From: Candidatus Nomurabacteria bacterium
GTDB taxonomy: Bacteria; Patescibacteriota; Minisyncoccia; Phycocordibacterales; UBA9973
Assembly: GCA_023267195.1 (NCBI GenBank)
Contig: JAHFNT010000002.1
Location: 87,830 to 151,829, forward strand
Reading direction: 5' to 3'
Length of the DNA: 64,000 nucleotides
Part shown: one piece after another, positions 154 through 59,419 of the stretch
How the letters are laid out: each line of letters starts with the position of its first letter
Position numbering within the stretch: the stretch's first letter is position 1
Program-made: the position numbers and the translations under genes
The notes under the pieces: model-generated
The model's database searches: none
The model's input: only the letters and a program-made list of their open reading frames with translations
What the model was told of the DNA's origin: nothing

Positions 154-2207
154 CTTTCCAAAATTTTCCTCAACACATCTTCGGGAACCTCTTTGATCTT
201 CTCCCCCTGCGAAGGAGAAGTGCCAGCTTGACTGGCGAGGGGGTCCTTTTTTGTTTGGTTATTTTCTTCTTTTTTAATATATTTCTTCTCTACCTTCTCT
301 TGGATCAAACTTTTCAACTTATTCATTTCTTCCGGCGTTGCAGCGCGATCCTTGGATAATGGAATTTCTTTTTTTACCTCTTCCTTAACTTTCTCCTTTA
401 AAACATCTAGCGAGACAGCCCCGACCTGTGTCGGGGTACCGACTTGGGTCGGGAGCTCAAGTGTTTTATTTAAAACTTCCCGTAAAGCAGAATTGTCGGT
501 AGAGATATGGGTAGATTTTTTGGTAAAAACTTTTTTAATACTACTTAGGATTCCGGATTTATTCGTAGACGCCACTTTAGCTGGCTGCACTGAAGATTTT
601 TCAACTTTTTCGGCGCGTTCATTTTCCCTTCCCTTGTTGTCTTTTTGGGTAAATTCTATACCCAAATCCGCTAGCGGTTTAAAGAATTTAGACTCATCAT
701 ACCGGATTTGATCTTGTCCGCTTTTTTCTACCTTCACTTCGCCAGATTTTATTTTGGCGATACATTCTTTGCAATAAGCTGGCCTGCCCGGCTCTGGCTT
801 GAATGGCACGGTTTTTTCTTTACCGCAAAGAGAGCAAATTATTGGAAATTTTTCCAAAGGTCCGCCGCTGGCGGAAACATTATCTGTATCTCCGAGCGAC
901 ATTTCGCTCCATTCATTGATTTCTCTTTCGACAATCTCCCTCGGCCGGCAGTAAAGATCACGAGAAGATTTTATCACTTCTTCTTCTATTTTTTTATCGC
1001 CAGATTTTACCATCTGTGGCAAGGTTTTCGCAGAAAAAGGACGCGAGGTCACTCCATCGATCATTAATTTCATATAGACTTTGTAGTTCGGCAAATTAAC
1101 AATATCCTGCGGAGTGAATTCTGGCTCAAATTCTGATTCTAAAAATTCCGCGTCATCCGAACCGACCCGGAAAACAATCATCGTTCCCACGTTGCCAAAT
1201 ACCGCATCCCGCACAGCCGAACTCTTGTCCACCACAAGCTGAGCCGTATACTGGTGAGCGACCGTTAGATTTAAACGATATTTTCTAGCCTCAGACAGAA
1301 TACCCGCAAAAGCATCCGTCACGAAGTTTTGAAATTCATCGACGTATAAATAGAAATCTCGGCGATGTTCTTCTGGAATGCGCACGCGCTCCATCGCCGC
1401 TAATTGAATCTTGGTAATAATCATTCCCCCAAGGAGCCCTGAATTATCTTCACCGATGCGCCCCTTGGAAACGTTTACCAAGAAAATCTTACCATCATTC
1501 ATGATATCGAAAATATTTATAGTGCTCTTCGATTGACCGACGACATTTCGGATGATTGAAGTAGAAAGAAATTGTCCAACTTTGTTTTGAATCGGCGCAA
1601 TCGCTTCGTTTCTAAATTTATCCTGCCAAGCTTCGTATTCATGAACCCAGAAAGCTTTAATGACTGGATCTTTTAGATTGGTAATTATTTTTTGGCGATA
1701 ATCTTTATCGACGAGCATGCGAGGAATTCCCAAGAGTGTCGTACCGGGGGTATCAAGCAAGGCGAGAATTGTATTATTTAAAATATATTCCATACGGGCG
1801 CTCCAAGCATTCGCCCAAATTTTTGTAAAAATACCCATCAAACCGGAAGCGACTAAATGCTTGTATTGCGGATCAATGAGCTCTAGAACATTAAAGCCAA
1901 TATGATAATCTGCGTCGGCTGGATTGAAATAGACCACGTCTTTCATTCTATGGGGCGGAATAGCAGAAAGAACTGCTTCGACGTTTTCTCCATGCGGATC
2001 AACCAGACAAACCCCTTCGCCGTTCTGAATATTCTGGATGATCATATTAAACATCAGCACCGATTTACCAGTACCGGACTTTCCGAGAATATAAACATGC
2101 TGCCGTCTGTCTTTGCGCTTGATGCCAAAAAGCTGATTTTTGTCGCGATAAGTGGTAAGACCAAGATAAGTAATATCTTTATTTATGGGTATTTCTGGAA
2201 GTTCCAT
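150..2207 (-). CDS. VirD4/TraD/TraG-like (T4SS coupling-protein family) P-loop ATPase with a K/E-rich low-complexity C-terminal tail and a zf-trcl-like CxxC...P.YCxxC zinc ribbon
   Basis: Walker A is GKSGTGKS and Walker B is LYVDEFQNF, with the TraD/TrwB-like arrangement. The C-terminus has CSLCGKEKTVPFKPEPGRPAYCKECI (zf-trcl-like). No N-terminal TM segment and no neighbouring T4SS genes. Confidence 0.5.
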   Translation of the reverse strand: MELPEIPINKDITYLGLTTYRDKNQLFGIKRKDRRQHVYILGKSGTGKSVLMFNMIIQNIQNGEGVCLVDPHGENVEAVLSAIPPHRMKDVVYFNPADADYHIGFNVLELIDPQYKHLVASGLMGIFTKIWANAWSARMEYILNNTILALLDTPGTTLLGIPRMLVDKDYRQKIITNLKDPVIKAFWVHEYEAWQDKFRNEAIAPIQNKVGQFLSTSIIRNVVGQSKSTINIFDIMNDGKIFLVNVSKGRIGEDNSGLLGGMIITKIQLAAMERVRIPEEHRRDFYLYVDEFQNFVTDAFAGILSEARKYRLNLTVAHQYTAQLVVDKSSAVRDAVFGNVGTMIVFRVGSDDAEFLESEFEPEFTPQDIVNLPNYKVYMKLMIDGVTSRPFSAKTLPQMVKSGDKKIEEEVIKSSRDLYCRPREIVEREINEWSEMSLGDTDNVSASGGPLEKFPIICSLCGKEKTVPFKPEPGRPAYCKECIAKIKSGEVKVEKSGQDQIRYDESKFFKPLADLGIEFTQKDNKGRENERAEKVEKSSVQPAKVASTNKSGILSSIKKVFTKKSTHISTDNSALREVLNKTLELPTQVGTPTQVGAVSLDVLKEKVKEEVKKEIPLSKDRAATPEEMNKLKSLIQEKVEKKYIKKEENNQTKKDPLASQAGTSPSQGEKIKEVPEDVLRKILES
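424..459. repeat. GC-rich double-hairpin repeat (CCCGAC-N4-GTCGGG x2), copy 1, in-frame inside the 3' part of the VirD4-like CDS (encodes PTQVGTPTQVG)
   Basis: ccccgacctgtgtcgggg-taccgacttgggtcggga. Near-identical copies at 56885-56921 and 59382-59419. Confidence 0.6.
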
Positions 2208-2289
2208 ATGTCCATAAATTATAACAGAGATTTCCCAAACTAAAAAGCCTCTAATGTTTCAACAAATTAAAGATTTAGGGGGAAGGACT

Positions 2290-2946
2290 CTACCAAGGAA
2301 ATTTCTCCCCTTTAAACCAAAACTGACCCGTTTCTGGTTTGGAAATAGCCAAATCATAAATATATAAAGCTGCTTCTTCGGGCGACATATCTGCACCTGG
2401 TAAAGCCATATCTGTCATCACTGCTCCTGGGTGTACAGAAGAAACAGTTGCTTTGCCTTTTAATTGGTAAGACAAAATCCTAGTAAACATATTCAGTCCA
2501 GCCTTTGAAATTTTATATGATGGACTACTGGTACCAGGTGGATAACTTAAAGAGCCCTGACGAGAAGAAATGTTCACGACATGAGCATTCAAGTTTAACA
2601 GAGGAATAATGCGCTCGGTAAAATCAATTGGGCCGATCAAATTTGTTTCCAACACTTTTCTTAAAGCAGATATATTCTTTTTAGGATCTTTATCTTCTGG
2701 AAGCCAGGTGCCAGCATTGTTGATTAGTATATCAATCGGTTTTTTGAAATTTATAATTTCGTTCGCGCAATTTTCAATACTCTCAGAATCTGTTAAATCT
2801 AATTTAAGTATTGTTAAATTCTGGTGATCGAGACTGGTCTTACCCTTGGTTGACGTACCAAGAACAAAATATCCTTCTGATAAAAATTTTTGCGCTAGGG
2901 CTTTGCCGATACCCCTACTTATTCCCGTAATTAAAACGGTTTTCAT
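2290..2946 (-). CDS. short-chain dehydrogenase/reductase (SDR) family oxidoreductase
   Basis: N-terminal MKTVLITGISRGIGKALA (TGxxxGIG Rossmann motif) and an SDR-length protein. Start taken at the internal ATG (MKTV). Confidence 0.8.
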   Translation of the reverse strand: MKTVLITGISRGIGKALAQKFLSEGYFVLGTSTKGKTSLDHQNLTILKLDLTDSESIENCANEIINFKKPIDILINNAGTWLPEDKDPKKNISALRKVLETNLIGPIDFTERIIPLLNLNAHVVNISSRQGSLSYPPGTSSPSYKISKAGLNMFTRILSYQLKGKATVSSVHPGAVMTDMALPGADMSPEEAALYIYDLAISKPETGQFWFKGEKFPW

Positions 2947-3034
2947 TAATAAAGTATAGCAAAAAATCTGCAAACCGAAAATCCCTTTAAAAAACGACTA
3001 GGTCTTGCCTAGTCGTTTTTGGCTTGGGAATATT

Positions 3035-4945
3035 TTACGCTTTTGGCTCCTCTCCTTCCTTCTTTTCCTTAAACTCCGCATCCTTCACTTCACTTGGCTG
3101 TTCTTCAGGAGCCGAAGGTCCTGCATTCGCCTGCCCCGAGCCTGTCGAATGGGCCATTGCTTCCCCTATTTTAGACATTTCAGATGAAAGCTCTTCTGTT
3201 GCTTTTTTAATTGCCTCGCCATCAGTGCCATCTTTTACGCCTTTGAGAGCGGAAATTTTGGCTTCTACTCCAGACTTCAAGTCAGCTGGCACTTTGTCGC
3301 CAGCATCTTTGACCGCTTTTTCTGCAGTATAGATAATCATCTCGGCAGTATTTTTTAGATCTACGACTTCTTTCTTCTTTTTATCCTCTTCTGCATGCAG
3401 TTCGGCATCGGCTTGCATCTTTTTAATATCTTCTTCTTTCAAACCAGAACTTGCTTCGATTTTAATTGATTGAGTTTTGCCTGAAGCTTTATCTTTCGCA
3501 GTCACATTCAAAATTCCATTCGCATCTACATCAAAAGAAACTTCAATCTGTGGCATACCGCGAGGTGCTGGTGGCACCCCATCCAAAATAAATCTGCCTA
3601 AACTTTTGTTATCACTTGCCATCGGGCGTTCGCCTTGCACGATATGGATTTCCACCGATGTTTGATTATCCGCAGCGGTTGAAAATACTTGCGATTTATT
3701 TGAAGGAATAGTCGTATTGCGTTCGATCAATTTTGTCGCTACTCCGCCAAGCGTCTCAATGCCAAGCGAAAGCGGAATAACATCGAGAAGCAAAACATCA
3801 CGCACATCCCCTTGTAGCACGCCTGCTTGCACGGCTGCGCCGAGAGCCACGACTTCATCCGGGTTGATAGTTAAGTTTGGGGTCTTGCCGAAAACTTTTT
3901 TCACTTCTTCGACAATTTTTGGCATACGAGTCTGTCCGCCTACCATCACTATCTCATTCATATCTTCCATTTTGAAACCAGAAGCAGCCATAGCGCGTTT
4001 GGTGATCTCAATAGAACGCGAAATGTATTCGTCAGCGAGTGATTCAAGTTGCGCGCGAGTCATTTTGAGAAGAAGGTGTTGAGGCCCTTCTGAGGTAGAA
4101 GTGATGAATGGAATGTTTATTTCACTTTCGATAGCAGTAGAAAGTTCTATTTTAGCTTTTTCCGCTGCTTCATCGAGACGCTGAAGGGCAAGCTTATCAC
4201 TGCGCACATCGACGCCAGAGGTCTTTTTAAATTCTTCCGCAATCCAGTTGATAATTTTATGATCAATATCCCGGCCTCCCAAATGACTATCTCCGTCTGT
4301 AGATTTTACTTCGATGACATCATCGCCGATTTCTAGCACGGATACGTCGAAAGTTCCGCCACCGAAATCGTAGACAACGATCTTTTCATTTTTCTTTTTA
4401 TTAAAACCGTACGCTAACGCTGCGGCTGTCGGTTCGTTAATTATTCTTTTTACATCCAGTCCAGCAATTGCCCCCGCATCTTTGGTCGCTTTTCTTTGCG
4501 CATCGTTGAAATAAGCTGGGACCGTGATTACCGCTTCGGTAATTTTCTCTCCGAGTTTTGCTTCTACATCTGCTTTTATCTTGGAAAGGATCATTGCTGA
4601 AACTTCTTCTGGGCGCATCCATTTATCGCCAATTTTTACTTCCACACCACCATTAGCAGATTTTTGAATTTTAAAAGAGGCATTTTTCAAATCCTTTTGC
4701 ACTTCTGGATCTTCAAAATTGTGACCCATAAAACGCTTAATACCATAAACAGTATTTTCTGGATTGGTCACCGCTTGTCTCTTGGCTAAAAGCCCGACGA
4801 GCCTATCGCCATTTTTAGCCACGGCCACGACAGAAGGCGTCGTGCGATTCCCTTCGACATTTTCAATAATTTTTGGCGCGCCACCTTCAATGATGGCGAC
4901 CGCTGAATTTGTTGTACCCAAATCTATACCTATTGTTTTACTCAT
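3035..4945 (-). CDS. dnaK: molecular chaperone DnaK (Hsp70)
   Basis: [25 protein letters not shown], the VGGQTRMP motif, and a C-terminal EEVKD-like tail. Full-length Hsp70. Confidence 0.97.
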
Positions 4946-5032
4946 ATTTTTTATATGTTATTTATAATTTAACTTATATTTCGCGACCACTAATTATTTG
5001 TATAAAAGCAGTATATATGATAGTATATATCC

Positions 5033-5551
5033 ATGTCAAGCAAATCAAAATATTCCAACAAAATATTAAAAATATTGGGCGAAAAACCGGCCATACCACT
5101 AGAATCTCTTAAGGATGCGGATAACCCAAAAATTTCTTATGCTGTTGCTCGTTCTATAAAAAATCTTGTAACATCAGGCTGCGCCGAGATGCTAAATTCT
5201 GCCAACCAAAAATTTGTACGCATTACCAAAGAAGGTAAGACGAAACTAAACACCCTGCGTCTCGAAGGCGAAGATGCGCTAATCCCCTCTTCTTGGGATG
5301 GATTTTGGAGAATTATTTTAATCGATCTGCCGGAGAACAGAAAAAGTGAAAGAGAGAGTGTGCGTTATCTATTAAAAAAAGCAGGTTTTGTTTGTTTGAA
5401 AAATTCGGCTTGGATTTCTCCATTCCCTTTTGAACATTTGTTTACGAATATAAAAAAAGATTTAGGATTAACGACGGAGATGATGATCATCGTTACAGAA
5501 TTCATAGATGAAGAAACCAAGAAAGTTCTCTTTGAAACTTTCAGTAAATAA
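5033..5551 (+). CDS. small winged-helix / PaaX_C-like putative transcriptional regulator
   Basis: WDGFWRIILIDLPENRKSERESVRYLLKKAGFVCLKNSAWISP matches the PaaX C-terminal-like motif (WDG.W.hh.hDlPe..r..R..hr..L...GF..L..S.W..P). Divergent from dnaK. Confidence 0.4.
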   Translation: MSSKSKYSNKILKILGEKPAIPLESLKDADNPKISYAVARSIKNLVTSGCAEMLNSANQKFVRITKEGKTKLNTLRLEGEDALIPSSWDGFWRIILIDLPENRKSERESVRYLLKKAGFVCLKNSAWISPFPFEHLFTNIKKDLGLTTEMMIIVTEFIDEETKKVLFETFSK

Positions 5552-5560
5552 ATTTTTTAT

Positions 5561-5866
5561 TTAAGCAATCTTTTCTGTCATCCAAGTCTTATAGGCTCGA
5601 TTGATTCTGCGGACATCTACACCGGCAATCATGGGGGTGGAATAGCTGTGGTGCTTGGAGATTAGATCGTTTACATCCTCAAGTTTTGGTTCGAAAGTAA
5701 CGATCACCATCATCACTTCTTCCATTTTTTTAAACTTCCCTTCCCAGTCATAGATAGACTTGATTGGCCAGTAATGCACACAAGCGCCCATTTTTTTCTC
5801 AATAATAAGCTTACTGAGAGTTTCCGCCTCTTCAATTGTCGCGCAAGTAGTATGTATAAATACCAT
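5561..5866 (-). CDS. cutA: divalent-cation tolerance protein CutA
   Basis: About 100 aa, with VHYWPIKSIYDWEGK matching the CutA1 signature. Confidence 0.8.
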   Translation of the reverse strand: MVFIHTTCATIEEAETLSKLIIEKKMGACVHYWPIKSIYDWEGKFKKMEEVMMVIVTFEPKLEDVNDLISKHHSYSTPMIAGVDVRRINRAYKTWMTEKIA

Positions 5867-5935
5867 AAAATAGAGAATAGTATCCTTATAATCATTAGTG
5901 TCCGACCTTTCCCTTATTATACCACTTTACAAATT

Positions 5936-7684: not shown

Positions 7685-7767
7685 TTGATTTTACTTAAGA
7701 ATTTGCGATAGCAGAGTTTTAAGTTTTTATTTTAAATTACATATATACGCCATGGCTGATATATACA

Positions 7768-10055: not shown

Positions 10056-10058
10056 AAA

Positions 10059-19054: not shown

Positions 19055-20212
19055 TTATACAACAACTCCTCCTCCCAAACAAATATTATCGTCATACACA
19101 ACAATCGATTGACCTGAAGCCACTAATACTGGATTAGAAAAAATTATCACAGCTGTATTTTTTGAAAGCAGTTTCACTTTGCATGGAAAATATTCTCCAT
19201 GATATCTGATCTGTGCTGTATAACTTTTTTGTGAATCTGGGGTTTTCGAAATCCAATTAGTGTTTTGGATTTGTATTTCTGGCCTCCCTTGATAAGGGGA
19301 GGTCGGGAGGGGTTTTTTAGACACAACCCCCTTCGCCCCCTTGTCAGGGGGAAATTGCGACACTACCAAAATATTTTTCTTAGTATCTTTCGCCACTATG
19401 TAATATGCCCCATCACTTGGACTTTTTTTTGTAATCGTGAACCCATGCCGTTCACCTAAAGTATGAAACACGACTCCATCATGGTAGCCAATCTCTTCAC
19501 CTAATTCATTGAAAACTTTACCTTTTCTCTCTTCAATATAATGCTTTAAAAATTCTTTCAGGTCCACCGCACCCAAAAAGCAAATACCTTGGCTGTCTTT
19601 TTTGGTAGCAACTGGTATTTTGAATTTTTTTGCAAGTCTGCGAACCTCTGTTTTTTTTAGATTGCCAATCGGAAACAAAATTTTACTTAATTGCTCCTGC
19701 CCGAGCGTCCAAAGAAAATAACTTTGATCTTTGGATGGATCAATACTTTTCAGCAAAAAAAATTCTTCGGTGTTTTTTGAGTGGTCTGGTGACTTCACCC
19801 GAGGACCCGAGAAAAATACTGAAGAATTTTTTTTGCCTGCATAGTGCCCAGTTGCCACAAAATCTGCACCCATGGCAAGCGCTTTTTTTAGAAAGGCGCC
19901 GAACTTTACCTCTTTATTACACATCACATCTGGATTGGGTGTTCGTCCAACTTTATATTCACGAATCATGTAATCCGCCACTTCTTTTTTGTAAACATCT
20001 TCAAAATCAAAAGTAAGAAACGGAATATCCAAAAAAGCGGCTACCCGCATCGCATCGCGACGTTCTTCTTCTTCGTTGCACTCTAAAAAGTCTGGGTGCC
20101 AAGTTTTAATAAAAACTCCGACAACCTCATAACCATCTTTTTTTAGGAGGAGAGCAGACACGGCGCTATCTACTCCGCCAGAAAGCCCCACAAATACAAT
20201 ATTCTTTTTCAT
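19055..20212 (-). CDS. mnmA: tRNA-specific 2-thiouridylase MnmA
   Basis: VGLSGGVDSAV (PP-loop), ATGHYA, and C-terminal ...GQSIVVYDDNICLGGGVV. Carries an in-frame GC-rich insertion (see repeat 19285-19352). Confidence 0.9.
   Translation of the reverse strand: MKKNIVFVGLSGGVDSAVSALLLKKDGYEVVGVFIKTWHPDFLECNEEEERRDAMRVAAFLDIPFLTFDFEDVYKKEVADYMIREYKVGRTPNPDVMCNKEVKFGAFLKKALAMGADFVATGHYAGKKNSSVFFSGPRVKSPDHSKNTEEFFLLKSIDPSKDQSYFLWTLGQEQLSKILFPIGNLKKTEVRRLAKKFKIPVATKKDSQGICFLGAVDLKEFLKHYIEERKGKVFNELGEEIGYHDGVVFHTLGERHGFTITKKSPSDGAYYIVAKDTKKNILVVSQFPPDKGAKGVVSKKPLPTSPYQGRPEIQIQNTNWISKTPDSQKSYTAQIRYHGEYFPCKVKLLSKNTAVIIFSNPVLVASGQSIVVYDDNICLGGGVVV
19285..19352. repeat. GC-rich hairpin repeat cluster (CCTCCC..GGGAGG; CCCTTCGCCCCC-TTGTCA-GGGGG), in-frame inside mnmA (encodes FPPDKGAKGVVSKKPLPTSPYQGRP)
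   Basis: Related to the intergenic copies at 23171-23212 and 35343-35362 (shared CCCTTCGCCC and CCCCTG(A/T)CAGGGG cores). Confidence 0.55.
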
Positions 20213-23170: not shown

Positions 23171-23212
23171 ACCCCACCCTTCGCCCTCCCCTGACAGGGG
23201 AGGGTTGGGAGA
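23171..23212 (-). terminator. GC-rich hairpin (repeat-family member) acting as terminator of the 23215-24246 gene
   Basis: ccccacccttcgCCCTCCCCtgacaGGGGAGGGttgggagagg, followed on the minus strand by ttttgtttttt. Confidence 0.55.
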
Positions 23213-23214
23213 GG

Positions 23215-24246
23215 TTAGGCAATAGTATAAAGCCCGCTTTTGTTCTTTTTGAAATATTTTGAATTGGCGAGATTTACTAAGATAGTGTTCTTTTTGAAAT
23301 ATCTTTCTTTCATTACTCTTTTGACAATTTCCTCTTTGGACAAAGCGCCTCCCTCTCTTTTCAAAATATCTTCTATAACTTCTCGTGCAATGCCAGCTTT
23401 ATATCCCCATTCAGCTAGTGCATACATTCCTCTGCCAACCAAGATAAAACGCGAATCTTTGATAAGTTCATTATGACAAGTGGCATAGTGTGTTTTTTTG
23501 CCAAAGGTTTTTGAAATTGCGTCTGCCACTTCTCTAAAATGCATAGGTGAACCATGGCGTCTCATTACCAAAAAGGCATAATCTTTAACTCCGCGAGTGC
23601 GAATATTCGGAGAAGTAGCTTTACCCCATTCACCCAAACCGTTTTTGGCTACGGATTTAGACATGGAGAGCCATCTCTTAGCCATCTCTTCGTCCCTATA
23701 TTCCACAGCTATATCTTTCATTTGATCAAAAAACTTTTTAATCATCTCAGTTTCCGGAATAAGATCTTCGTCTTTGAGAGAAGCGAAAAGTTTACGCAAG
23801 GCATCATGAACCTTTTCTGCCATTCCATCATCGACACTCCAACGTACATGAAAATGCTCATCCTCACGATGCTTTTTAAAAATATCTGAGAGTACTAAAA
23901 AGAAATGAATATGATTCTGGGTTGCTTTGTCTTTTGCAATATAAGGAAGAAGCTCATGTTCAGCAACAACAGAACCTAATTTGTACATTAATTGTTTTAA
24001 TTCGTCAAAAACAGCCTGCTCAGTTTTATAAACACTAGATTTCTTAATGAGTTTTAATGCTGCATCTTCAATCTGTCTTACACGCTCTCGGGTAATGTTA
24101 TATTTCTTGCCGATTTCTTCAAGAGTTTTTCTTTTGCCATCAGCAGTTAAACCAAAACGGTTCATGATCACATCCAGAGCTCGATTCTGCAGATGCGAAG
24201 TAATTTTTTTGGTAATTTTTTTGGGTTTAAAAGATATCGCCGGCAT
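23215..24246 (-). CDS. sigma-70 region-4 HTH domain protein fused to a HARE-HTH-like C-terminal domain
   Basis: RKTLEEIGKKYNITRERVRQIEDAALKKL (sigma region 4.2), and C-terminal HFREVADAISKTF...RFILVGRGMYALAEW (HARE-HTH-like). Confidence 0.5.
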   Translation of the reverse strand: MPAISFKPKKITKKITSHLQNRALDVIMNRFGLTADGKRKTLEEIGKKYNITRERVRQIEDAALKLIKKSSVYKTEQAVFDELKQLMYKLGSVVAEHELLPYIAKDKATQNHIHFFLVLSDIFKKHREDEHFHVRWSVDDGMAEKVHDALRKLFASLKDEDLIPETEMIKKFFDQMKDIAVEYRDEEMAKRWLSMSKSVAKNGLGEWGKATSPNIRTRGVKDYAFLVMRRHGSPMHFREVADAISKTFGKKTHYATCHNELIKDSRFILVGRGMYALAEWGYKAGIAREVIEDILKREGGALSKEEIVKRVMKERYFKKNTILVNLANSKYFKKNKSGLYTIA

Positions 24247-35326: not shown

Positions 35327-35342
35327 TACCCCCTCCAAACCT

Positions 35343-35362
35343 CCCCCTTCGCAGGGGGAGAA
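35343..35362. repeat. GC-rich hairpin (CTCCCCC-TTCGCA-GGGGGAG) between infB and rbfA, member of the CCCTTCGC/CAGGGG repeat family
   Basis: Seen in sequence. There is no U-run on the + strand, so it is not a canonical terminator. Confidence 0.45.
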
Positions 35363-37128: not shown

Positions 37129-37385
37129 ATCGGAGTATTCTAGTACTTTGAAAATAAGAAATAAAAACATTGAGGTAAGACCTCAGTGTTGAATAGTTGG
37201 CTCGCCAAGAAATGAAACAACCTCTCCGGCCTTCGGCCACCCTCTCCTGGCCAGGAGAGGGCCAGGGTGAGGTAGTCAAATTTATTTTTTAGCGAGCGAA
37301 CTATTCACGAAGTTTCAGTATTCACCAATCTCACAACCCGCGCCCGCGGGCGCACAACAGCGCCAACGGCGCAGGAGAAAAGAAA

Positions 37386-47596: not shown

Positions 47597-49195
47597 ATGA
47601 GCATTTTTGAAAGATGGCAAACAGGTATAGAAACAAAAACAAGTGCTGAAAAATTACCAAAATATCTGTCTATGTATAAAATTCCCGGGCACGAACAGAT
47701 AACTTATCACTCTTTTGTCAGATACCAAAAAGATAAAAAGCAAGATAAAGCGATAAAGGAAGCGGCAGATTTTGCGGCGAATTATAAAAAAAGGATAAAA
47801 AACTCCTCTCCTGAAGATATGATTACATTGATCGAGCAGGGCCTCGCTGAAAATAATGTAAAAACGCAAATAATGTGCGTAGAAATGATTAGGTATGTTA
47901 AAGAGATTGGCAAAAGATTTTCTCTTATTGAAAAGGTAATTGACATCGACAATGAAGAGTTGCAAGCCGCCTGCGCAGAAGCTGTCAGATATGTTCCATT
48001 GGATAAAAGAGATATCTTGATTGAAAAAGGTTTAAACTCCAACAATGAGGAAATACAAGCAGTTTACGCGGAAATGATTAGGTGTGTTCAAGAAGGCAGA
48101 AGAGCTGCATTAATTGAAAAATGCTTAGACATCTGTGGTCTAAAAGCTAGGGTTGTCGCAGCCTTAATGATTTTTCAATATACTACACCAAAAAACCGTC
48201 CAATGCTTGAAGAAAAAGTAGCTGCATTAGTTAAAAATTATTTATCTAGCAATAATGCTAAATTGCAAATAGGTTGTATCAAGATGATATGGAACGCACC
48301 AAAAGATCAGATGTCCACACTAATTGAACAAGGTATTGATACCAACAATATTGAAGTTCAGGCAGCTTGCGCTGGTATGATTGAATATATTATAGAAACT
48401 AACGAAAGAAAAAAACTTAGGGCAAAAATATACAGTGTTATAGAACAGGGTTTTGAAACAAACGATCCAGAAAAACATCTGTTTTGCGCAGAAATGATTC
48501 GCAGTATACCGACAGATCAACAAAATTTGCTTGGAGACAAGTTGGCATCTTTAATAAAAAAAATACTTGAATCTGACAATAGTAATGAAATTAAAAAAGT
48601 GTACGCGGCTATGATCTGTTATGCATCAGAAAACAAAAAAGCAGACCTTTTTAAGCAAGCCTGGGGGAAACTAGGCAATACTTTAATAGAACCACCTTTG
48701 TATGAAAATATGGATATGTCCAAAAGAAAATTTTCAAGAATGGAATTTTCAAAAACCGGTTCAGAAACTACGTTAATTGGAGGCAAATTAAAAGATAAAA
48801 TAATAATTAGGCATATTACACCAGAATCTTTCTTGGCCTGGCAAAAATTATACGAGGATTATGAAATGTGGGCAAAAGCAGGCTTTGATTATGTGCCCAT
48901 AGAACCAATACAGTCGTTTAAGTTAAATGGAAATGGTCTAGTCGATGTGTATAGTGGTGTTTTAGATTTGAATTTGGATGATTGGAAAAAATATATAGGA
49001 GGATATGACCGAGCTTTAGATGGTGTTAAAGAGCGCATAAAAGGTATTTTAATAGAAAGAGGAATAATTCATGGGCATGATTATCATGACGGAAATTTCT
49101 GCCTACGTTTTTTTAGAGACAAAAATGGCAATATAGATTTTAGTAAAAAACCACGTGTTTATATTATTGATTTTGACATGGCCACAATCATGTAG
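47597..49195 (+). CDS. fusion protein: N-terminal HEAT/PBS-lyase-like repeats plus C-terminal divergent RIO/Kdo-like protein-kinase-fold domain
   Basis: About 8 repeats of LIEQGL..NN.E.Q..C.EMIRYV with about 36-aa period. C-terminal IIHGHDYHDGNFCLRF...VYIIDFDMA resembles the RIO/Kdo-kinase catalytic and metal-binding loops (LVHGDLSEYN...IIDFPQ), with a non-canonical catalytic loop. Confidence 0.5.
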   Translation: MSIFERWQTGIETKTSAEKLPKYLSMYKIPGHEQITYHSFVRYQKDKKQDKAIKEAADFAANYKKRIKNSSPEDMITLIEQGLAENNVKTQIMCVEMIRYVKEIGKRFSLIEKVIDIDNEELQAACAEAVRYVPLDKRDILIEKGLNSNNEEIQAVYAEMIRCVQEGRRAALIEKCLDICGLKARVVAALMIFQYTTPKNRPMLEEKVAALVKNYLSSNNAKLQIGCIKMIWNAPKDQMSTLIEQGIDTNNIEVQAACAGMIEYIIETNERKKLRAKIYSVIEQGFETNDPEKHLFCAEMIRSIPTDQQNLLGDKLASLIKKILESDNSNEIKKVYAAMICYASENKKADLFKQAWGKLGNTLIEPPLYENMDMSKRKFSRMEFSKTGSETTLIGGKLKDKIIIRHITPESFLAWQKLYEDYEMWAKAGFDYVPIEPIQSFKLNGNGLVDVYSGVLDLNLDDWKKYIGGYDRALDGVKERIKGILIERGIIHGHDYHDGNFCLRFFRDKNGNIDFSKKPRVYIIDFDMATIM

Positions 49196-49253
49196 AAAAA
49201 TACCATAACCCAGGGCTTGCGTTTTTGTAGTTTTATAGTAGTATGAATTTACT

Positions 49254-49372
49254 CCGACGGAAAGTCGTAGAACCGACCACAGCGTCGGCTTTAAAAGCAG
49301 GATTTGGGGTAACCATCCGACCCAGGTCGGATAACCTAGACCTTATATCCGCTTTGCGCGGATTTTTAATTT
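49254..49372 (+). promoter_or_regulatory. GC-rich structured leader upstream of rpsA (three hairpins incl. CCGAC-CCAG-GTCGG and atccgc-tttgc-gcggat+T-run ending 11 nt before the ATG)
   Basis: Seen in sequence. Candidate attenuator or autoregulatory element, or terminator of the upstream gene. Confidence 0.35.
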
Positions 49373-50503: not shown

Positions 50504-50530
50504 AAAAACCCTGAGCGGGGTTTTTTGTTT
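50504..50530. terminator. bidirectional rho-independent terminator between rpsA (+) and 50529-51197 (-)
   Basis: aaaaaaccc-tgagc-ggggttttttgttt. Confidence 0.65.
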
Positions 50531-51197
50531 AAGCGTCAGCAGTGTCGGTCATAATTTCTGCTTCTCCAATCGTATTCATTATAGACATCACTTGCTCGGC
50601 ATATTTGGGAACTATCGACGGAGGATTGTAAGCGCGGAGAATTTGGATAGTAGTTTTATCGTCATAATGCTTTGCTGTCTTTGGATTATTTCCTCCCAAG
50701 TTTCTAGCAACGGTTTCTATCGCTTCATCATCTGATTTAAAACCAATTTTACACGAACCCCAACCGAAAGCATTGTGTTTTACTTTAATACAATCATTTT
50801 TACCACCAGTAGATTCCCGCACGGCAATAGCAGGAAGCAGACGCCAGTCTAGGTCATTCTTTTCGGCTTCTTCCACCATTTTCATACCAGTACCAGCAAG
50901 CGGCATGTCACGCTCCTTAAAATAATTATCAATAGAAATTGCTTTTTCTGTTCTAGCTTTTTGCAACAAAACCTCTGGGTCAATAGCTTGGTTAAGAACT
51001 AAAGTTCCATTAGTTGTAATATTAAGTTTTTGAATTAACACGTTTCCGGCAATCTGTGAACTATGAACGTTCCCAAAAGAGAGCGACATAGACATAACGG
51101 GCAAAAAAACCAAGGATTGCATAAAACGTATTAAATTTTTATTTTTCATATTGGGGCGGTTTTGCTCCACCAACTCCAGATCTGTCATTTCAGCCAA
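50529..51197 (-). CDS. secreted hypothetical protein, possibly lysozyme/SLT-like (ES motif)
   Basis: Signal peptide. LPAIAVRESTGGKND...NAFGWG loosely resembles the SLT catalytic E-S region. Support is weak. Confidence 0.35.
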   Translation of the reverse strand: MAEMTDLELVEQNRPNMKNKNLIRFMQSLVFLPVMSMSLSFGNVHSSQIAGNVLIQKLNITTNGTLVLNQAIDPEVLLQKARTEKAISIDNYFKERDMPLAGTGMKMVEEAEKNDLDWRLLPAIAVRESTGGKNDCIKVKHNAFGWGSCKIGFKSDDEAIETVARNLGGNNPKTAKHYDDKTTIQILRAYNPPSIVPKYAEQVMSIMNTIGEAEIMTDTADA

Positions 51198-51388
51198 CTT
51201 TGTGACTAAAAATTAAAAAATCCTTATTTCATAGACCTTACGCCTATAATACAAGGACATGCCAACATGATAGCATATTCATAAACAAAAGTCAATAGTT
51301 ATACAATAATATTACCATCTGTCAAATCTAAAATATTCTTATATTACAAGGTATTTTAGAAATTTAGGTTTGACAAATAAGTCTAAAA

Positions 51389-53994: not shown

Positions 53995-54012
53995 ACTATC
54001 ATAAAAAGAGTT

Positions 54013-55299
54013 TCAGGAAAGCGCAGCCTTGAGCTTCTCCATATCGCTCCAAGGATACTTTACGCCTTTAATTTCTTGATAAGTTTCGGGACCTTTGCCC
54101 ATGAGTAAAACTATATCTCCCGCGCGAGCTATCTTCCCCACTTCTTCTATCGCCCTGTTTCGATCGGGAAATTTTTTTATTTTTTGTAATAATTCCGGAG
54201 AAAGTTCTGAACACATTGCTTCGATAATTTTTTCTGGTTCTTCACTACGTGGATTGTCTGCAGTAAAAATTGCCAGATCAGAAAGTGAAGCTCCGAGTTT
54301 TCCCATCACTGGCCTCTTGAAGGGATCTTTATCTCCCCCGCAACCAAATACAGAGATAACTCTGCCCCCTTCTTTCACAATATCTTTCGCTGTGTTGATT
54401 ATTTTTTCTACTGCATCTGGACTGTGTGCAAAATCCAACACGCCGAGCACGCCGTTCGCACCATAAAAATATTCAAATCTGCCAGCGGGTGGAGAAACTT
54501 TCGCTAAAGCGTTTGTTGTTTTTTCTTTATTAAAACCTAAGAGTAAACAAGCAGAGTAAACTGCAAGCACATTGTAAGCATTGAATTTTCCAATCAGTGG
54601 AGCAGATATTCCATGGTCATTTATTTTTAATTTTAATCCAGAAAAATCCATATTTACAATTTCTCCATGAAAATCCTCCCCGCCTGCATCAGCTATGCCT
54701 GAAGCATTGCGGGCAGGCTGACCTTTAAATCCATAGGTTTCTTTTTTTGCGTTTATGCCATCAAGCATTCTCGCTCCATATGGATCATCCGCATTTGATA
54801 AAGCAAAAGCGTCTTTGGGTAAAAATTTAAAAAAGGCTTTTTTCGCCAAGAAATACTGCTCCATGGTTTTGTGGTAATCCAAATGATCGTGCGTCAGATT
54901 GGTAAAAATTCCGCCAGTAAATTTTATGCCCCTTACCCTATTTTGATCCATTGCATGTGAACTCACTTCCATAAAAACATATTCGCAATCTTTTTTTACC
55001 ATTTCGTTAAAAATTTTGATTAAAGTCGTTGAGTCGGGGGTAGTGCCAGGCTTGCTGGAATTACTTTTTATTTCTATCTTCTCTCTGTTCGCTCTGTTCT
55101 CAACAGTTCCAATTAGCCCAGCCTTATATCCAAGTTCCAGAGCAATTTTATACAAAAGTGTAGCTGTCGTCGTCTTGCCATTTGTTCCTGTGACTCCAAT
55201 AATTTTTAATTTTCGAGCCGGATTGCCATAATAAATCTGCGCTAAAAATAACTTGAAACTCCACCAAATTGTTTTAAGTTTTTTACTAAAGTTTTTCAT
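54013..55299 (-). CDS. murE: Mur ligase, best fit UDP-N-acetylmuramoyl-L-alanyl-D-glutamate--2,6-diaminopimelate (or L-Lys) ligase MurE, N-terminally shortened
   Basis: IGVTGTNGKTTTA, TTPDS, EVSSHAMDQNRV, TNLTHDHLDYH. Confidence 0.75.
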   Translation of the reverse strand: MKNFSKKLKTIWWSFKLFLAQIYYGNPARKLKIIGVTGTNGKTTTATLLYKIALELGYKAGLIGTVENRANREKIEIKSNSSKPGTTPDSTTLIKIFNEMVKKDCEYVFMEVSSHAMDQNRVRGIKFTGGIFTNLTHDHLDYHKTMEQYFLAKKAFFKFLPKDAFALSNADDPYGARMLDGINAKKETYGFKGQPARNASGIADAGGEDFHGEIVNMDFSGLKLKINDHGISAPLIGKFNAYNVLAVYSACLLLGFNKEKTTNALAKVSPPAGRFEYFYGANGVLGVLDFAHSPDAVEKIINTAKDIVKEGGRVISVFGCGGDKDPFKRPVMGKLGASLSDLAIFTADNPRSEEPEKIIEAMCSELSPELLQKIKKFPDRNRAIEEVGKIARAGDIVLLMGKGPETYQEIKGVKYPWSDMEKLKAALS

Positions 55300-55538
55300 T
55301 TTAATTTAGGCTGGGTTAAGATCTCTTGGTCTATCTTCTTGAATCTCTCAATTTCTTTTCCATCTAGGACAATATTTTCCAAAAACATTTGTTTCGGTCT
55401 AGCCCAAATCACGCCGTCTTCTAGGTGCATATAAATAACCAAATGCTCTTTATTTTCGCTATGAATCGCTTCAAAAAGCACCTTTACTCTGGTTCCTTTG
55501 TAGTGTCTATAAACTGCCCCAATTTCTAAGCTTTTCAT
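55296..55538 (-). CDS. DUF1653 domain protein
   Basis: YRHYKGTRVKVLFEAIHSENKEHLVIYMHLEDGVIWARP. Confidence 0.55.
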   Translation of the reverse strand: MKSLEIGAVYRHYKGTRVKVLFEAIHSENKEHLVIYMHLEDGVIWARPKQMFLENIVLDGKEIERFKKIDQEILTQPKLK

Positions 55539-55541
55539 TTC

Positions 55542-56177
55542 TTATTTCTTTTTGACCCCTCCCCATTTTCGATACTTTTCTTTTCGGCCAATGAACCATG
55601 GATCGTTTATATCAAGCCACCATGAATCAGGGTGGGTTTTGGCTAAAATTTTTCCGAGTTCTTTGCCATGCTTGGTCCGAAGATCTTTTATGGCAATATT
55701 TATCCAATCTTTCGCTTTTATATTTCCCTTCACTTCTTCCGCCCGCAGGGTTGAAATCCATTCGAGCCTATCAGCATCTTTCACTATCCTAGCTTCAGGA
55801 GTAAGCCGAGCCTGTTCTTCTTGAAATAGATCAGTGATTTCTTTACCAAAAGGAACACTCTTGGAAATATCTTCCACCGCTTGCCCTTCCGCCAGCCTAC
55901 CATAACGTTGATGCACATAATTGTGATCAGAAGTGCGGCCTTCCCCAATGTCATGCAGGAGCGCCATGAGCACCACTTTGTTTTTATCAACTTTTGGTTC
56001 AAGGTGACACAAAGCATAAGCAATCATTGCAGTATGAAATAGATGCTCTGCGACAGACTGCTCGCCACTGCCTAAAAACCAAAACCCAGACCGTGGTGTC
56101 ATACTATGAATACCCGTTTCATACACAAAATTCGCAATTTGATCGTATGTGTTATTCTTCTTATTTTTCTTTACCAT
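55542..56177 (-). CDS. HD-domain phosphohydrolase (YfbR/5'-deoxynucleotidase-like)
   Basis: H...HTAMIAYAL...LLHDIGEGRTSDH. The HD motif is intact. Confidence 0.7.
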   Translation of the reverse strand: MVKKNKKNNTYDQIANFVYETGIHSMTPRSGFWFLGSGEQSVAEHLFHTAMIAYALCHLEPKVDKNKVVLMALLHDIGEGRTSDHNYVHQRYGRLAEGQAVEDISKSVPFGKEITDLFQEEQARLTPEARIVKDADRLEWISTLRAEEVKGNIKAKDWINIAIKDLRTKHGKELGKILAKTHPDSWWLDINDPWFIGRKEKYRKWGGVKKK

Positions 56178-56222
56178 ATTTTTAAATAAATTTCTTTTAA
56201 TTAGAATTATCTAGATTTTATT

Positions 56223-56744
56223 TTATGATTTTTTGGGCCAAATAGCAACGAAGTAAGCGCTAGGCTCTAAAACATTATTAAACCAGATAAATAACAATTC
56301 TTCTTTAGAAATTTTATGTCTTTGGCCATCTTTTGGATCATTGTAAAAGAAAATACCATTTTTATATCCGGTAATAACAATAAAGTGACCATTTGGAGAT
56401 GGCTTTTTATTAAAAAGCAGAAAAGATCTGACTAATAAAATTACCGGCACCCCTTTTGATAAATATTCTTCTATACGTTTTACATTTGGCCTTTCTATCT
56501 CTGCTTTTCCGCCTGCCGCTTTCTCATTAAAAGAAAAGCATTTGCTTTGGTAGCCTGCGTATTTTGCATAATCAGCTAGTGCAATAGTTCTGACTCCATA
56601 TTTTCTGAGACCGCCAATAAACTTTATAATTTCTTTTTCATTGATCTCTTTTCCGAAATACTTAAAAATCATACGAAGTGCCGTAGGTCCGCAAGTGTCC
56701 TTCTTTTGCTTCAGCAATGGAACATTGAGAATTTTATTTTTCAT
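56223..56744 (-). CDS. peptidase C39-like (papain-fold) domain protein
   Basis: LLKQKKDTCGPTALRMIFKYFG with catalytic Cys context, later GHFIVITGY..NDP (His region). Confidence 0.5.
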   Translation of the reverse strand: MKNKILNVPLLKQKKDTCGPTALRMIFKYFGKEINEKEIIKFIGGLRKYGVRTIALADYAKYAGYQSKCFSFNEKAAGGKAEIERPNVKRIEEYLSKGVPVILLVRSFLLFNKKPSPNGHFIVITGYKNGIFFYNDPKDGQRHKISKEELLFIWFNNVLEPSAYFVAIWPKKS

Positions 56745-56762
56745 CTAATTCTCTTGCGATTT

Positions 56763-59324
56763 TTAATTCACCAAAGACTTCCTGTGTTGTGGTGCATTGA
56801 TCAAACCACATTTTTTGTATTTATAGATTTCACCTGTGGCTGGATTAATGGCTCCACAAGGGCACGGATCATTGCGCCCGATATTCTCCGACCCTATGTC
56901 AGAATCCGACTTTGGTCGGACTTTTTTTCCTCCAAGCTCTGATGGTTCAGTGTGACTTGTCACTAAAGTTTGCTTGGGCACATCATTTGGTTCCTCTTTT
57001 ACACTTTGAACAATGTCGGTATTTATCGTACCAACAAGTGAAAAAACTTGTTCTTTAAAAGTTTCTTCCATTTCTTTAAACATACTCAGTCCGTCTTTTT
57101 TATATTCTACTATGGGTTCACGCTGTCCATAAGCACGCAGATTTACCGATGAACGTAAATAGTCCATCGCTTCAAGATGCTCCATCCACAATGTGTCGGT
57201 AGTGTATAAAGCAATCCTGCGAACAGTCTCAAAAAACATTTCGTCCCCTAATTTTTTTCTTTTTTCTTCAATTGTTTTGTCAAAACCTTCTTTATTTTCC
57301 GCTATGCCGACAAGTAAAGCCTCAATTTCAGCTTTATCTGCGCGCAACATTTTCTGTCGTCTTTCATAAATTATTTTACGTTGATGATTCATTACATCAT
57401 CATATTCAAGCGTATTTTTTCTAGCGTCAAAATGAAATCCTTCTATTTTCGCCTGCGCGCCCTCGAGCGTTCGACTGATAAAACGATTCTCAATCGGCTG
57501 GTCTTCTGGTATGCCAAATCGCCCCATCATAGTTTTAATTTTTTCAGATCCAAAGACCCGCATTAAATCATCTTCTAGTGAGACATAGAACTGCGAAGCT
57601 CCCGGGTCGCCTTGCCTGCCCGAACGACCACGAAGCTGATTGTCAATCCTGCGCGCTTCGTGCCTCTCGGTACCTAGCACGAAAAGTCCGCCTGCATTTC
57701 TTACGAATTGATATTCTTCTTCTGTGTGTGGATTTCCTCCCAATTTAATATCAATACCACGACCAGCCATATTTGTGGCGATGGTTACTGCACCCTTCTT
57801 TCCAGCTTGGGCAATTATTTCTCCCTCTTTCTCGTGATTTTTTGCATTCAAGATAGTGTGCTGCACCCCCTCTTGCTTTAGATAAGCGGAGAGTAGTTCG
57901 TTTTTCTCAATTGAGATTGTGCCGATCAAAACTGGTTGACCTTTTAGATTTAAATCTTTCACTTTTTTGGCGATGGCCTGGAATTTTCCTTTTTCCGTTT
58001 GAAAAATTAAATCAGAGTGGTCTATACGAACAACAGGACGGTTGGTTGGAATAACTATTACATCCAAACCATAAACTTTCAAAAATTCCTCCGCGGAAGT
58101 TGCCGCCGTACCCGTCATACCAGAAAGCTTTTTATAAAATCTAAAATAATTCTGGAAAGTAATAGACCCGGAAGATCGGGTTTCTTTTTCAATTTTTACT
58201 CCTTCTTTTGCCTCAATTGCCTGATGAATACCTTCCGACCAGCGCCTGCCAGGCTGCAGACGGCCAGTAAAGGGATCAACAATAACGACCTCACCTTCTT
58301 TAACTACATAATCTCGATCCCGTTCAAAAATAGCCTGCGCTTTAACAGCAGTTTCTAGATGGTGCACATATTTGATCCCTTTTTCTGTATATATATTTTC
58401 TACTCCGAGAAGTTTTTCAGCTTTACTAATACCGGCATCAGTCAGAGTTATAGCTTTTAATTTTTCATCCACTTCATAATCTGTATCCCGCTTCAACTGC
58501 TTGGCAATTTGATAAAATTTTACATAAAAATCTTCGGAGTCGCCGGACTGCGAAGAAATAATAAGGGGGGTACGTGCCTCGTCTATTAAAATAGAGTCCA
58601 CTTCATCAACAACAGCGAAATTATGCCCTCTTTGCACCAAATCATTTATATTCGTAGCTAAATTATCTCTTAAATAATCAAAACCGTATTCGTGATTCGT
58701 ACCATAAGTAATATCTGCCCCGTAGGCTTCTTTTCGAGAACATGGTTTTAGAAAATCATATACCACCTTAAATTCTCCAACTTGATCGCGCTCTTTATCT
58801 TCTTCCACGTGCTTCGGATCATAGAGGTAAGAAACATTTTGTGAATTAATAACACTCACGCTTAATCCCAAAAAATTATAAACCTGCCCCATGAGTACCG
58901 CGCCGATACGTGAAAGGTAATCGTTCACCGTAATAATATGCACTCCCTCTCCTGTGAGCGCATTTAAATATGCGGGTAAAACTGCTACTAAAGTTTTTCC
59001 TTCCCCGGTGCGCATCTCGGCAATTTTGCCGGAATGGAGAGCCAAACCTCCAATCAATTGAACATCATAATGTCTCTCTTTTAAATTTCTCTTGGCCGCT
59101 TCACGCACGAGCGCAAAAGCCTCCGGCAATATTTCATCCAAAGTTTTAGATTTATTCTCCGACTGCGCTAATCGGTCCTTAAATTCCTGTGTTTTTTTAG
59201 GAAAATCAGTATCTGCCAACTTTGAGCTATTTTCCTCAAAAGCATTGATTTTAGCGACTATTTTATTGGCATTTCCTATGAATTTGGAACTCTCATCTCC
59301 AAATATTTTACTGAATAAAGACAT
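56763..59324 (-). CDS. secA: preprotein translocase ATPase SecA
   Basis: DEAD-like NBDs (VDEVDSILIDEARTPLIIS), PPXD, HWD/HSD, and a C-terminal Zn-binding tail (CPCG...C). Carries the in-frame double-hairpin repeat at 56885-56921. Confidence 0.96.
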   Translation of the reverse strand: MSLFSKIFGDESSKFIGNANKIVAKINAFEENSSKLADTDFPKKTQEFKDRLAQSENKSKTLDEILPEAFALVREAAKRNLKERHYDVQLIGGLALHSGKIAEMRTGEGKTLVAVLPAYLNALTGEGVHIITVNDYLSRIGAVLMGQVYNFLGLSVSVINSQNVSYLYDPKHVEEDKERDQVGEFKVVYDFLKPCSRKEAYGADITYGTNHEYGFDYLRDNLATNINDLVQRGHNFAVVDEVDSILIDEARTPLIISSQSGDSEDFYVKFYQIAKQLKRDTDYEVDEKLKAITLTDAGISKAEKLLGVENIYTEKGIKYVHHLETAVKAQAIFERDRDYVVKEGEVVIVDPFTGRLQPGRRWSEGIHQAIEAKEGVKIEKETRSSGSITFQNYFRFYKKLSGMTGTAATSAEEFLKVYGLDVIVIPTNRPVVRIDHSDLIFQTEKGKFQAIAKKVKDLNLKGQPVLIGTISIEKNELLSAYLKQEGVQHTILNAKNHEKEGEIIAQAGKKGAVTIATNMAGRGIDIKLGGNPHTEEEYQFVRNAGGLFVLGTERHEARRIDNQLRGRSGRQGDPGASQFYVSLEDDLMRVFGSEKIKTMMGRFGIPEDQPIENRFISRTLEGAQAKIEGFHFDARKNTLEYDDVMNHQRKIIYERRQKMLRADKAEIEALLVGIAENKEGFDKTIEEKRKKLGDEMFFETVRRIALYTTDTLWMEHLEAMDYLRSSVNLRAYGQREPIVEYKKDGLSMFKEMEETFKEQVFSLVGTINTDIVQSVKEEPNDVPKQTLVTSHTEPSELGGKKVRPKSDSDIGSENIGRNDPCPCGAINPATGEIYKYKKCGLINAPQHRKSLVN
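56885..56921. repeat. GC-rich double-hairpin repeat, copy 2, in-frame in the SecA C-terminal linker (encodes VRPKSDSDIGSE)
   Basis: tccgaccctatgtcagaatccgactttggtcggact is about 85% identical to 59382-59419. Confidence 0.6.
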
Positions 59325-59346
59325 GAATATATCTTAGCATAAAAAA

Positions 59347-59376
59347 GAAAAAATTCCTCCGTAGAGGAATTTTTTC
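59347..59376. terminator. hairpin terminator immediately upstream of secA, followed by a possible TGcTAAGAT/TATGCT -10 element abutting the secA ATG
   Basis: gaaaaaattcctc-cgta-gaggaattttttc, then on the minus strand cttttttATGCTAAGATata-ATG. Confidence 0.55.
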
Positions 59377-59381
59377 TAGAA

Positions 59382-59419
59382 GATCCCGACCCATGTCGGG
59401 ATCCCGACTTTGGTCGGGA
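59382..59419. repeat. GC-rich double-hairpin repeat, copy 3 (GATCCCGAC-CCAT-GTCGGGATC + CCCGAC-TTTG-GTCGGG), intergenic
   Basis: Perfect 9-bp and 6-bp stems. Lies immediately 3' of a 23-codon Lys-rich micro-ORF (59420-59491, minus). Confidence 0.6.

Follow-up and report, generated by a model that had tools for sequence, protein, structure and literature searches.

A GC-rich double hairpin in genes and spacers of Patescibacteria, probably a small non-autonomous repeat

The DNA analysed here (the window) is a 64,000 nt stretch of the Candidatus Nomurabacteria contig JAHFNT010000002.1 (GCA_023267195.1, positions 87,830 to 151,829, forward strand) with a GC content of 39%. Nearly all of its genes lie on the minus strand, where GC skew is negative. 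The window contains three copies of a GC-rich double hairpin, referred to as the doublet. Copy 1 (CCCCGACCTGTGTCGGGG followed by TACCGACTTGGGTCGGGA; 419-454, +) is located inside a VirD4/TraD-like gene for a type IV secretion coupling-protein-like ATPase (150-2207, -; Pfam PF10412, PF01935, PF02534, PF12696 and PF23477), which also possesses a CxxC-x17-CxxC domain. Copy 2 (degenerate, sense strand GTCCGACCAAAGTCGGAT followed by TCTGACATAGGGTCGGAG; 56885-56920, +) is found in secA (56763-59324, -; PF07517, PF01043, PF21090 and PF07516), in the flexible C-terminal linker before the zinc finger. The peptides that an original prediction from the bare sequence had assigned to these two copies, PTQVGTPTQVG in the first gene and VRPKSDSDIGSE in secA, are encoded as claimed, the latter in another frame than the former. 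Copy 3 (canonical, TCCCGACCCATGTCGGGA followed by TCCCGACTTTGGTCGGGA; 59384-59419, +) is intergenic and lies upstream of secA, between a tiny conserved basic open reading frame (ORF; MAAKKKAKKGGKKKAKKSSKKRA, 59420-59491, -), the stop codon of which abuts it, and an intrinsic terminator-like hairpin with T-run (59346-59377, -), situated directly downstream on the transcribed strand.

With at most one mismatch, the motif CCCGAC-N4-GTCGGG matches the window four times, against 0.01 matches expected from shuffles, and the strict-pattern matches pair up with an 18-bp period into two doublets (420-453 and 59385-59418). The looser motif CCGAC-N4-GTCGG has seven matches (0.27 expected), including 56906-56919 and 49317-49330. 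A profile hidden Markov model (HMM) and a covariance model, both built from 32 canonical copies from the window and other genomes, were run on the window and detect three doublets and no more, each on the plus strand and in one and the same orientation, with covariance-model E-values of 8e-13 for copy 3 (59384-59421), 2e-10 for copy 1 (419-456) and 3e-4 for copy 2 (56886-56922). Two of them are near-canonical (419-454 and 59384-59419) and one is degenerate (56885-56920). Of the three near-identical elements of about 36 bp described originally, all exist as doublets; the first starts at 419, not at 424, and the copy inside secA is less similar than stated, matching copy 3 at only 29 of 37 aligned positions, with an insertion and a deletion besides.

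Weak relatives occur at 49250-49332 (+), where a spacer of 178 bp separates ORF 47597-49195 (+) from the S1-domain gene. They comprise a degenerate hairpin pair (49255-49267 and 49272-49289) and a solo unit (TCCGACCCAGGTCGGA, 49316-49331), and match the models marginally (49250-49290, E = 0.075; 49315-49337, E = 0.16; single-unit E = 0.04). The solo hairpin had been placed in the rpsA leader (49317-49330). It is present there, but a terminator-like hairpin follows 17 nt downstream (49347-49363, +), so that it more likely belongs to the 3' untranslated region of the upstream gene.

A protein on a 190,712-bp NCBI/ENA contig has the same sequence (100% identity) as the SecA of the window, which is 84-87% identical to the SecA of Candidatus Nomurabacteria/Paceibacterota metagenome-assembled genomes (MAGs). 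An ENA copy of that contig is ERZ27279942:k141_5483046. Copy 3 is present in an ENA contig (L200), and the copy 1 peptide was recovered in an independent Logan assembly (P0127, a fragment of 100% identity). An Rfam scan of the window at gathering thresholds returned only seven tRNAs and no match at the doublets; a permissive scan of 59300-60500 added only sub-threshold, implausible matches.

The unit consists of exactly 2 x 18 nt, that is TCCCGAC-N4-GTCGGGA twice with abutting halves, each of which forms its own 7-bp hairpin with a 4-nt loop. The consensus of the 32 copies is T-CCCGAC-CYCT-GTCGGG-A followed by T-CCCGAC-TTYG-GTCGGG-A and then C. Its two loops are conserved and differ from each other, which gives the doublet a definable orientation. 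The search pattern had fixed the inner five pairs of each stem, and only the outer two pairs per stem are informative. These outer pairs covary (T-A, C-G, A-T; C-G, T-A, G-C), with 27 double-compensatory cells. Under a two-hairpin model 99% of the cells are paired, a value reached by none of 500 shuffles; under a nested one-hairpin model 93.1% are paired against 93.2% in shuffles, of which 341 of 500 are as good. The single long nested hairpin, which is the minimum-free-energy fold of the RNA, was rejected, as it lacks covariation support. As DNA, the doublet folds into the two hairpins that had been predicted (-15.2 kcal/mol, z = -5.2). Its GC content is 63-71% in a genome of 39%; the flanks show only a T-rich or purine-rich composition. 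The stems are free of stop codons in every frame, and the length corresponds to 12 codons. A related 38-nt family, CCCGACGTAAAGTCGGGAT[C/G]CCGACTTTACGTCGGGA, has 5-nt mutually complementary loops and is mostly intergenic. A 45-nt variant, CTCCGAC-N10-GTCGGAG/TCCCGAC-N7-GTCGGGA, read as PTPEGVGVPTASVG, occurs twice within one secA (L140, 5507-5555 and 7073-7121) and also in VirD4-like orthologues; the proteins noted with it are P0209 and P0212.

Alignment of orthologues, proposed with the original prediction, shows that each of the three window sites, like further sites in SecA, occurs both filled and empty. Upstream of secA, the 28 related loci examined all share one layout, in which a conserved promoter and leader precede a tiny basic ORF (MAAKKK...KKRA*) that is followed by a short spacer, then an intrinsic terminator and finally secA. 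The window is arranged in the same way, except that exactly 36 nt, which the 28 loci lack, come immediately after the stop codon of the tiny ORF; the empty site reads AGAAGA/CTAAGC in element orientation. Comparison of the filled with the empty site reveals no target-site duplication at copy 3 (ambiguity of 2 nt at most), and relative to these loci copy 3 is a precise 36-bp insertion. The same terminator is found in L129 without a doublet, and L126 has a different double hairpin at the spot of copy 3. The tiny ORF is likewise kept in 28 of 28 related loci, with 13-36 amino acids and an end that is always KKRA or RRR; its leader (to about 59640) starts with a perfect DnaA-box-like TTATCCACA (59630-59622, -).

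Copy 1 sits in a hypervariable linker between ALREVLNKTL and VSLDVLK. Among 120 VirD4-like orthologues, the linker (ALREVLNKxL to PVSLDSLK) ranges from 0 to about 40 residues, and the doublet is absent from about 114 of them. It occurs in six, at three or more positions; one of the six is the identical Logan fragment and two carry the 45-nt variant. Copy 1 is, judged from these orthologues, an insertion. Other motifs recur in VirD4-like linkers, namely ASPIGGLQPRE and SALGGSASGGK, and may have an origin similar to that of the hairpin insertions.

The VRPKSDSDIGSE segment of copy 2 is shared by one of about 190 SecA relatives (P0060, locus L205) and was the only such case among 120 SecA proteins as well; a CGAC..GTCG hairpin in the C-terminal linker was found at none of roughly 70 SecA loci. 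The DNA of L205 contains two well-formed hairpins in the same frame as in the window, and both stem changes only swap wobble and Watson-Crick pairs. From its distribution, copy 2 too is an insertion. L205 has copy 2 without copy 3. No evidence was found for the two secA copies forming a composite or recombination pair, and the special meaning once attached to them as flanking direct repeats is unsupported. Relatives were not found to encode the same peptides by DNA other than hairpins, with the nuance that L201 has a PTQIG in its SecA tail whose codons form no hairpin; it may represent an old, decayed unit. In distant Patescibacteria (L184, L188 and L181), a GC-rich nested hairpin, CCCGCCGAAGCTCCGCGAAGCGGAGCGAAGGCGGG, encodes the peptide GLPAEAPRSGAKVG just before the zinc-finger motif of SecA.

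Another SecA site is a loop of the nucleotide-binding domain (NBD; YLYD..KH.EE/DKERD), which is empty in about 20 relatives as well as in the window, and filled in L108, L069, L140, L142 and L126, which do not group together in the SecA tree. The L140 SecA has two 45-nt copies, the second near residue 691. The NBD-loop copies of L140, L142 and L126, an unbiased sample, are remodelled, yet still form two hairpins. The patchy distribution of the filled alleles, together with flanking substitutions that they have in common, suggests that they spread by recombination after DNA uptake. In L126 (proteins P0050 and P0085) the same loop site that elsewhere holds a canonical doublet is filled by a different in-frame double hairpin, TCCAGCGTAGCTGGA plus CCCGACAATTCAGAAGAATTGTCTAGGG, with the peptide AKSSxAGSPDNSEELSR.

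Further copies are many in other Patescibacteria. A genome scan with one genome per species gave at least 119 loci. Among the matches listed, those of low GC content belong almost all to Patescibacteria (Paceibacterota, Nomurabacteria, Harrisonbacteria, Saccharibacteria), and those of high GC content are chance matches or tandem arrays. Several MAGs carry at least 3-6 matches, the counts per MAG being lower bounds. Viral contigs gave no doublet match, nor did the INPHARED phages, and the PLSDB plasmids only one chance match of 20 nt, so that these collections lend no support to an origin from phages or plasmids. Neither a description of the doublet in Patescibacteria nor its sequence was found in the limited literature collection searched. 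In L140 (1889-2130), three double hairpins are located downstream of the 16S rRNA gene, in its trailer, after a conserved aaacaaagaacagag motif and before a terminator. The motif and hairpins also occur in L142 (420-464) and L108 (476-511), the rRNA gene context being seen for L140 only.

The canonical copies in coding DNA obey rules of length, frame and strand. Among 36-nt copies, 20 lie in long ORFs and 12 do not; among 37-38-nt copies the numbers are 2 and 18 (P = 2e-4), so genes hold versions of 3n length (36 or 45 nt) and mostly not the 37-38-nt ones. After removal of orthologous duplicates, 20 coding copies remained for the counts of frame and strand. Seventeen use the PTxVG frame (PTxVGxPTxVG, P = 3e-6), and in 18 the sense strand carries the loops CRAA and AGRG (P = 4e-4); the peptide of the other reading frame, SRPxSGSRxGSG, is sometimes used. 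The chance of PTxVG being encoded by the hairpin codons (the rare CCG and GTC) is about 0.04 per unit. All five truly intergenic copies share the orientation of the coding copies relative to the upstream gene (P = 0.06). Besides SecA, the hosts elsewhere are housekeeping proteins of unrelated kinds (a UvrD-like helicase, a DnaQ-like exonuclease, MurB, DnaG, ATP synthase gamma (AtpG) and a ComM/Mg-chelatase-like protein), and the copies are positioned between domains or in loops. Canonical copies in non-coding DNA are window copy 3, those of L021 and L113, and those of the 16S rRNA trailers. Orthologues retrieved at the protein level (L203, L204) have retained the hairpins in their DNA. When L203 is compared with the window, third codon positions agree at 9 of 10 stem sites and at 3 of 8 flank sites (P = 0.04); in L204 a synonymous change of both partners is compensatory (ACC..GGG to ACT..GGA).

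According to these data, the doublet is probably a small non-autonomous double-hairpin repeat of Patescibacteria, similar to repetitive extragenic palindromic (REP) sequences and Rickettsia palindromic elements (RPEs). It is inserted as a unit, without detectable target-site duplication, and is spread or exchanged among widely divergent Patescibacteria. The idea of REP- or RPE-like hairpins tolerated in frame in variable protein segments is thereby borne out by the filled and empty sites in hypervariable linkers and loops. Strict membership in REPs or in MITEs, the miniature inverted-repeat transposable elements, is not, given the missing GTAG/CGTC tag, the missing target-site duplication, the low copy number and the mostly intragenic location. 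Recurrence of the same module across the phylum marks it as a repeat and not a chance similarity. Chance, convergent terminator hairpins or an assembly artefact would be extremely improbable sources of it: although GC-rich genomes yield chance matches to the loose pattern and terminators of relatives share a similar core (CTTCCGAC-GAAA-GTCGGAAG), shuffles lead one to expect next to no matches in the window, unrelated loci have conserved loops and junction, the copies recur in independent assemblies, and the doublets lack a T-run, copy 3 being followed by a terminator of its own. It is also very unlikely that selection acts on the PTxVG repeats as linkers or short linear motifs, with palindromy as a by-product. 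Canonical copies in non-coding DNA speak against such a protein-level motif, as do the different frame used in SecA and kept in L205, the rare GC-rich codons in a 39% GC genome, the conservation of loops and junction as DNA, and the absence from most orthologues; the intergenic and alternative-frame copies, which identify the unit as DNA and not a peptide motif, have largely refuted it already. This holds even though the Pro-Thr (CCG-AC) and Val-Gly (GTC-GG) codons are mutually reverse complementary, PTxVG is encoded by both strands in one frame, the frame predominates among the coding copies, L201 has a PTQIG-like peptide with non-hairpin DNA, and an SAQVG/PLQVG segment recurs in many SecA tails.

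More has to be weighed for a functional cis-element, a strand-specific signal in RNA or single-stranded DNA kept under selection as a structure that stabilises 3' ends or aids termination in spacers, a ribosome pause at domain boundaries in mRNAs or a site for a conserved protein of Patescibacteria, which we nevertheless consider unlikely. Nearly all copies have the same orientation with respect to transcription, the truly intergenic ones without exception, and the core sequence is conserved across Saccharibacteria and Paceibacteria. Pairing is kept despite diverged flanks in L203, in the L204 pair and in the wobble/Watson-Crick switches of L205, and the remodelled copies of L140, L142 and L126 retain two hairpins; palindromes can, however, stay complementary through template-switch mutation, for which selection is not needed. 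Single units that carry a T-run act as terminators in relatives and intergenic copies lie just upstream of terminators, but the doublets are much too sparse and unevenly spread to be a general signal, the host genes and positions are mutually unrelated, and most orthologues do without the doublet at each site examined. The strand bias could also stem from replication-coupled insertion, with genes co-oriented with the GC skew. A DNA uptake sequence was rejected, as it would need about one copy per kb, against 3 per 64 kb observed here and about 1 per 680 kb in relatives; this sparseness, a junction that varies and the covariation within one strand led to the rejection of a parS-like protein site as well.

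Several observations weigh against the interpretation as a small mobile repeat. The frame and strand bias is not predicted by random selfish insertion and needs an added explanation. Copy number is low, with 3 doublets in the 64 kb of the window and a single canonical one detected by a profile (nhmmer) search in 679 kb of unbiased secA neighbourhoods of relatives; the window genome is roughly 30-fold enriched compared with these neighbourhoods, and the family is still low-copy. A covariance model run on the same 679 kb finds further diverged copies, many or most of them in L140. The stem identity of the L108 and L069 copies is partly an ascertainment effect of the pattern search. Movement was not observed, and presence or absence across species could partly reflect precise loss or recombination. 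A phmmer search of 3766 ORFs in 1.17 Mb of low-GC sequence with IS200 and IS608 TnpA queries found no credible IS200/IS605-like TnpA, nor a REP-associated tyrosine transposase (RAYT), which is a weak negative; the one marginal match is unlinked to any doublet.

If the doublet is such a repeat, it could be mobilised in trans by an enzyme recognising single-stranded hairpins, as for REPs with their associated tyrosine transposases (REP/RAYT) or for IS200/IS605 ends. Alternatively or additionally, filled alleles may be spread by DNA uptake and homologous recombination. Its persistence in genes is accounted for by the 3n length and the lack of stop codons, only about 12 residues being added to variable linkers or loops, even in essential proteins. 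The frame bias would be explained if the added peptide is under selection. In spacers, copies sit between stop codon and terminator. The strand bias and the missing target-site duplication fit a single-strand, replication-coupled insertion; a constraint at the RNA level fits equally. A bolder proposal seems rather doubtful to us, namely that the doublet, beyond being selfish DNA, is a phylum-wide, strand-specific, codon-phased structural signal, read as RNA or single-stranded DNA by a conserved host factor or acting as a co-translational pause or 3'-end structure, with stems selected even at synonymous sites of essential genes, or else the product of a new mechanism of hairpin insertion that uses no classical transposase and generates linker diversity in streamlined genomes.

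Three other features of the window were noted. A second GC-rich hairpin family, CCCTCCCC-TGACA-GGGGAGGG or CCCCCTTGTCAGGGGG, is present at 19283-19351, 23171-23216, 35330-35362 and 37220-37275, often with CCCTTCG before it, and appears unrelated to the CCCGAC family. A non-coding block beside tRNA-Pro (60230-60359, -) is 92-99% identical in more than 15 relatives and may be an undescribed small RNA; its Rfam matches are sub-threshold only, the best being Phe_leader with 47 bits against a gathering score of 55. Within ORF 47597-49195, three diverged 53-nt direct repeats about 200 nt apart (47852-48303) are probably an internal repeat of the protein, which has no Pfam match.

In Patescibacteria (candidate phyla radiation, CPR), genomes are tiny and streamlined, and as a rule they are described as containing few repeats and little mobile DNA. 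Selfish or structure-forming DNA nonetheless invades their core genes (SecA, DnaG, UvrD, MurB, ATP synthase gamma), and the doublet is one source of length variation in their protein linkers. Annotators would otherwise take the PTxVG repeats for protein motifs. The doublet is also a handy marker for recombination and for strain typing in metagenomes, and its frame and strand bias offers a testable handle on how hairpins insert and survive.

Among known systems, REPs are short palindromic stem-loop repeats with a GTAG or CGTC tetranucleotide, for which intragenic copies are documented (Di Nocera et al. 2013, PMC3733652). CGTC-type REPs are without a known dedicated transposase, and spacerless head-to-tail dimers of REPs are reported to be negligible; RPE-4 and RPE-6 are discussed in the same paper (PMC3733652). 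The doublet resembles REPs as a short GC-rich stem-loop repeat with 4-5-nt loops, often in dimers, located after stop codons and sometimes inside genes for replication or repair proteins without disrupting them, and its 18-nt units with 7-bp stems and a common consensus over 32 copies agree with the 20-40 bp stem-loop palindromes by which REPs are defined. It differs in its consensus TCCCGACCYCTGTCGGGATCCCGACTTYGGTCGGGAC, which lacks a GTAG or CGTC tag, in the head-to-tail dimer without spacer and the stems of only 7 bp, in having few copies per genome instead of hundreds (REPs typically number more than 100 and are mainly extragenic), and in that at least 20 of the 32 canonical doublets lie in long ORFs, with a strict frame and strand bias. 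With REP doublets forming hairpins (REPINs) and IS200/IS605 elements it shares the hairpin basis, the lack of target-site duplication and a strand-specific orientation, as for single-strand transposition. The 38-nt relatives, having mutually complementary loops, even exhibit the inverted long-hairpin feature of REPINs, whereas the units of the 36-nt doublet are direct, its loops non-complementary and its nested fold without covariation. Unlike IS200/IS605 elements, the doublet leaves no room for flanking cleavage and guide sequences, and unlike MITEs, which combine terminal inverted repeats with a target-site duplication, copy 3 has no such duplication, exactly 36 nt being inserted. Intrinsic terminators are approached by the terminator-like single units with T-run in relatives, but no doublet is followed by a T-run, and that of copy 3 belongs to a separate terminator (59377-59346).

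RPEs are palindromes of selfish DNA that have entered essential protein genes of a reduced, AT-rich genome in frame, where they add a tolerated peptide. The doublet, an in-frame palindromic insertion absent from most orthologues, corresponds to them in this respect. Most RPE families are roughly 100-150 bp long and confined to Rickettsia; in contrast, the doublet measures 36 or 45 nt, consists of two mini-hairpins and has its hosts in Patescibacteria, phylum-wide. Mitochondrial genomes harbour comparable elements, namely the double-hairpin elements (DHEs) of Allomyces, the GC clusters of yeast and the repetitive hairpin elements (RHEs) of sponges. As in these, two adjacent GC-rich hairpins are found in a compact AT-rich genome, in spacers, next to rRNA genes and in coding sequences, patchily distributed among relatives and without a known transposition machinery. 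Mitochondrial elements belong to another domain of life and are presumably unrelated to the doublet in sequence, the resemblance being architectural only. The doublet thus extends a known theme rather than introducing a new one, in-frame palindromes being already familiar from Rickettsia, REP-rich bacteria and mitochondria.

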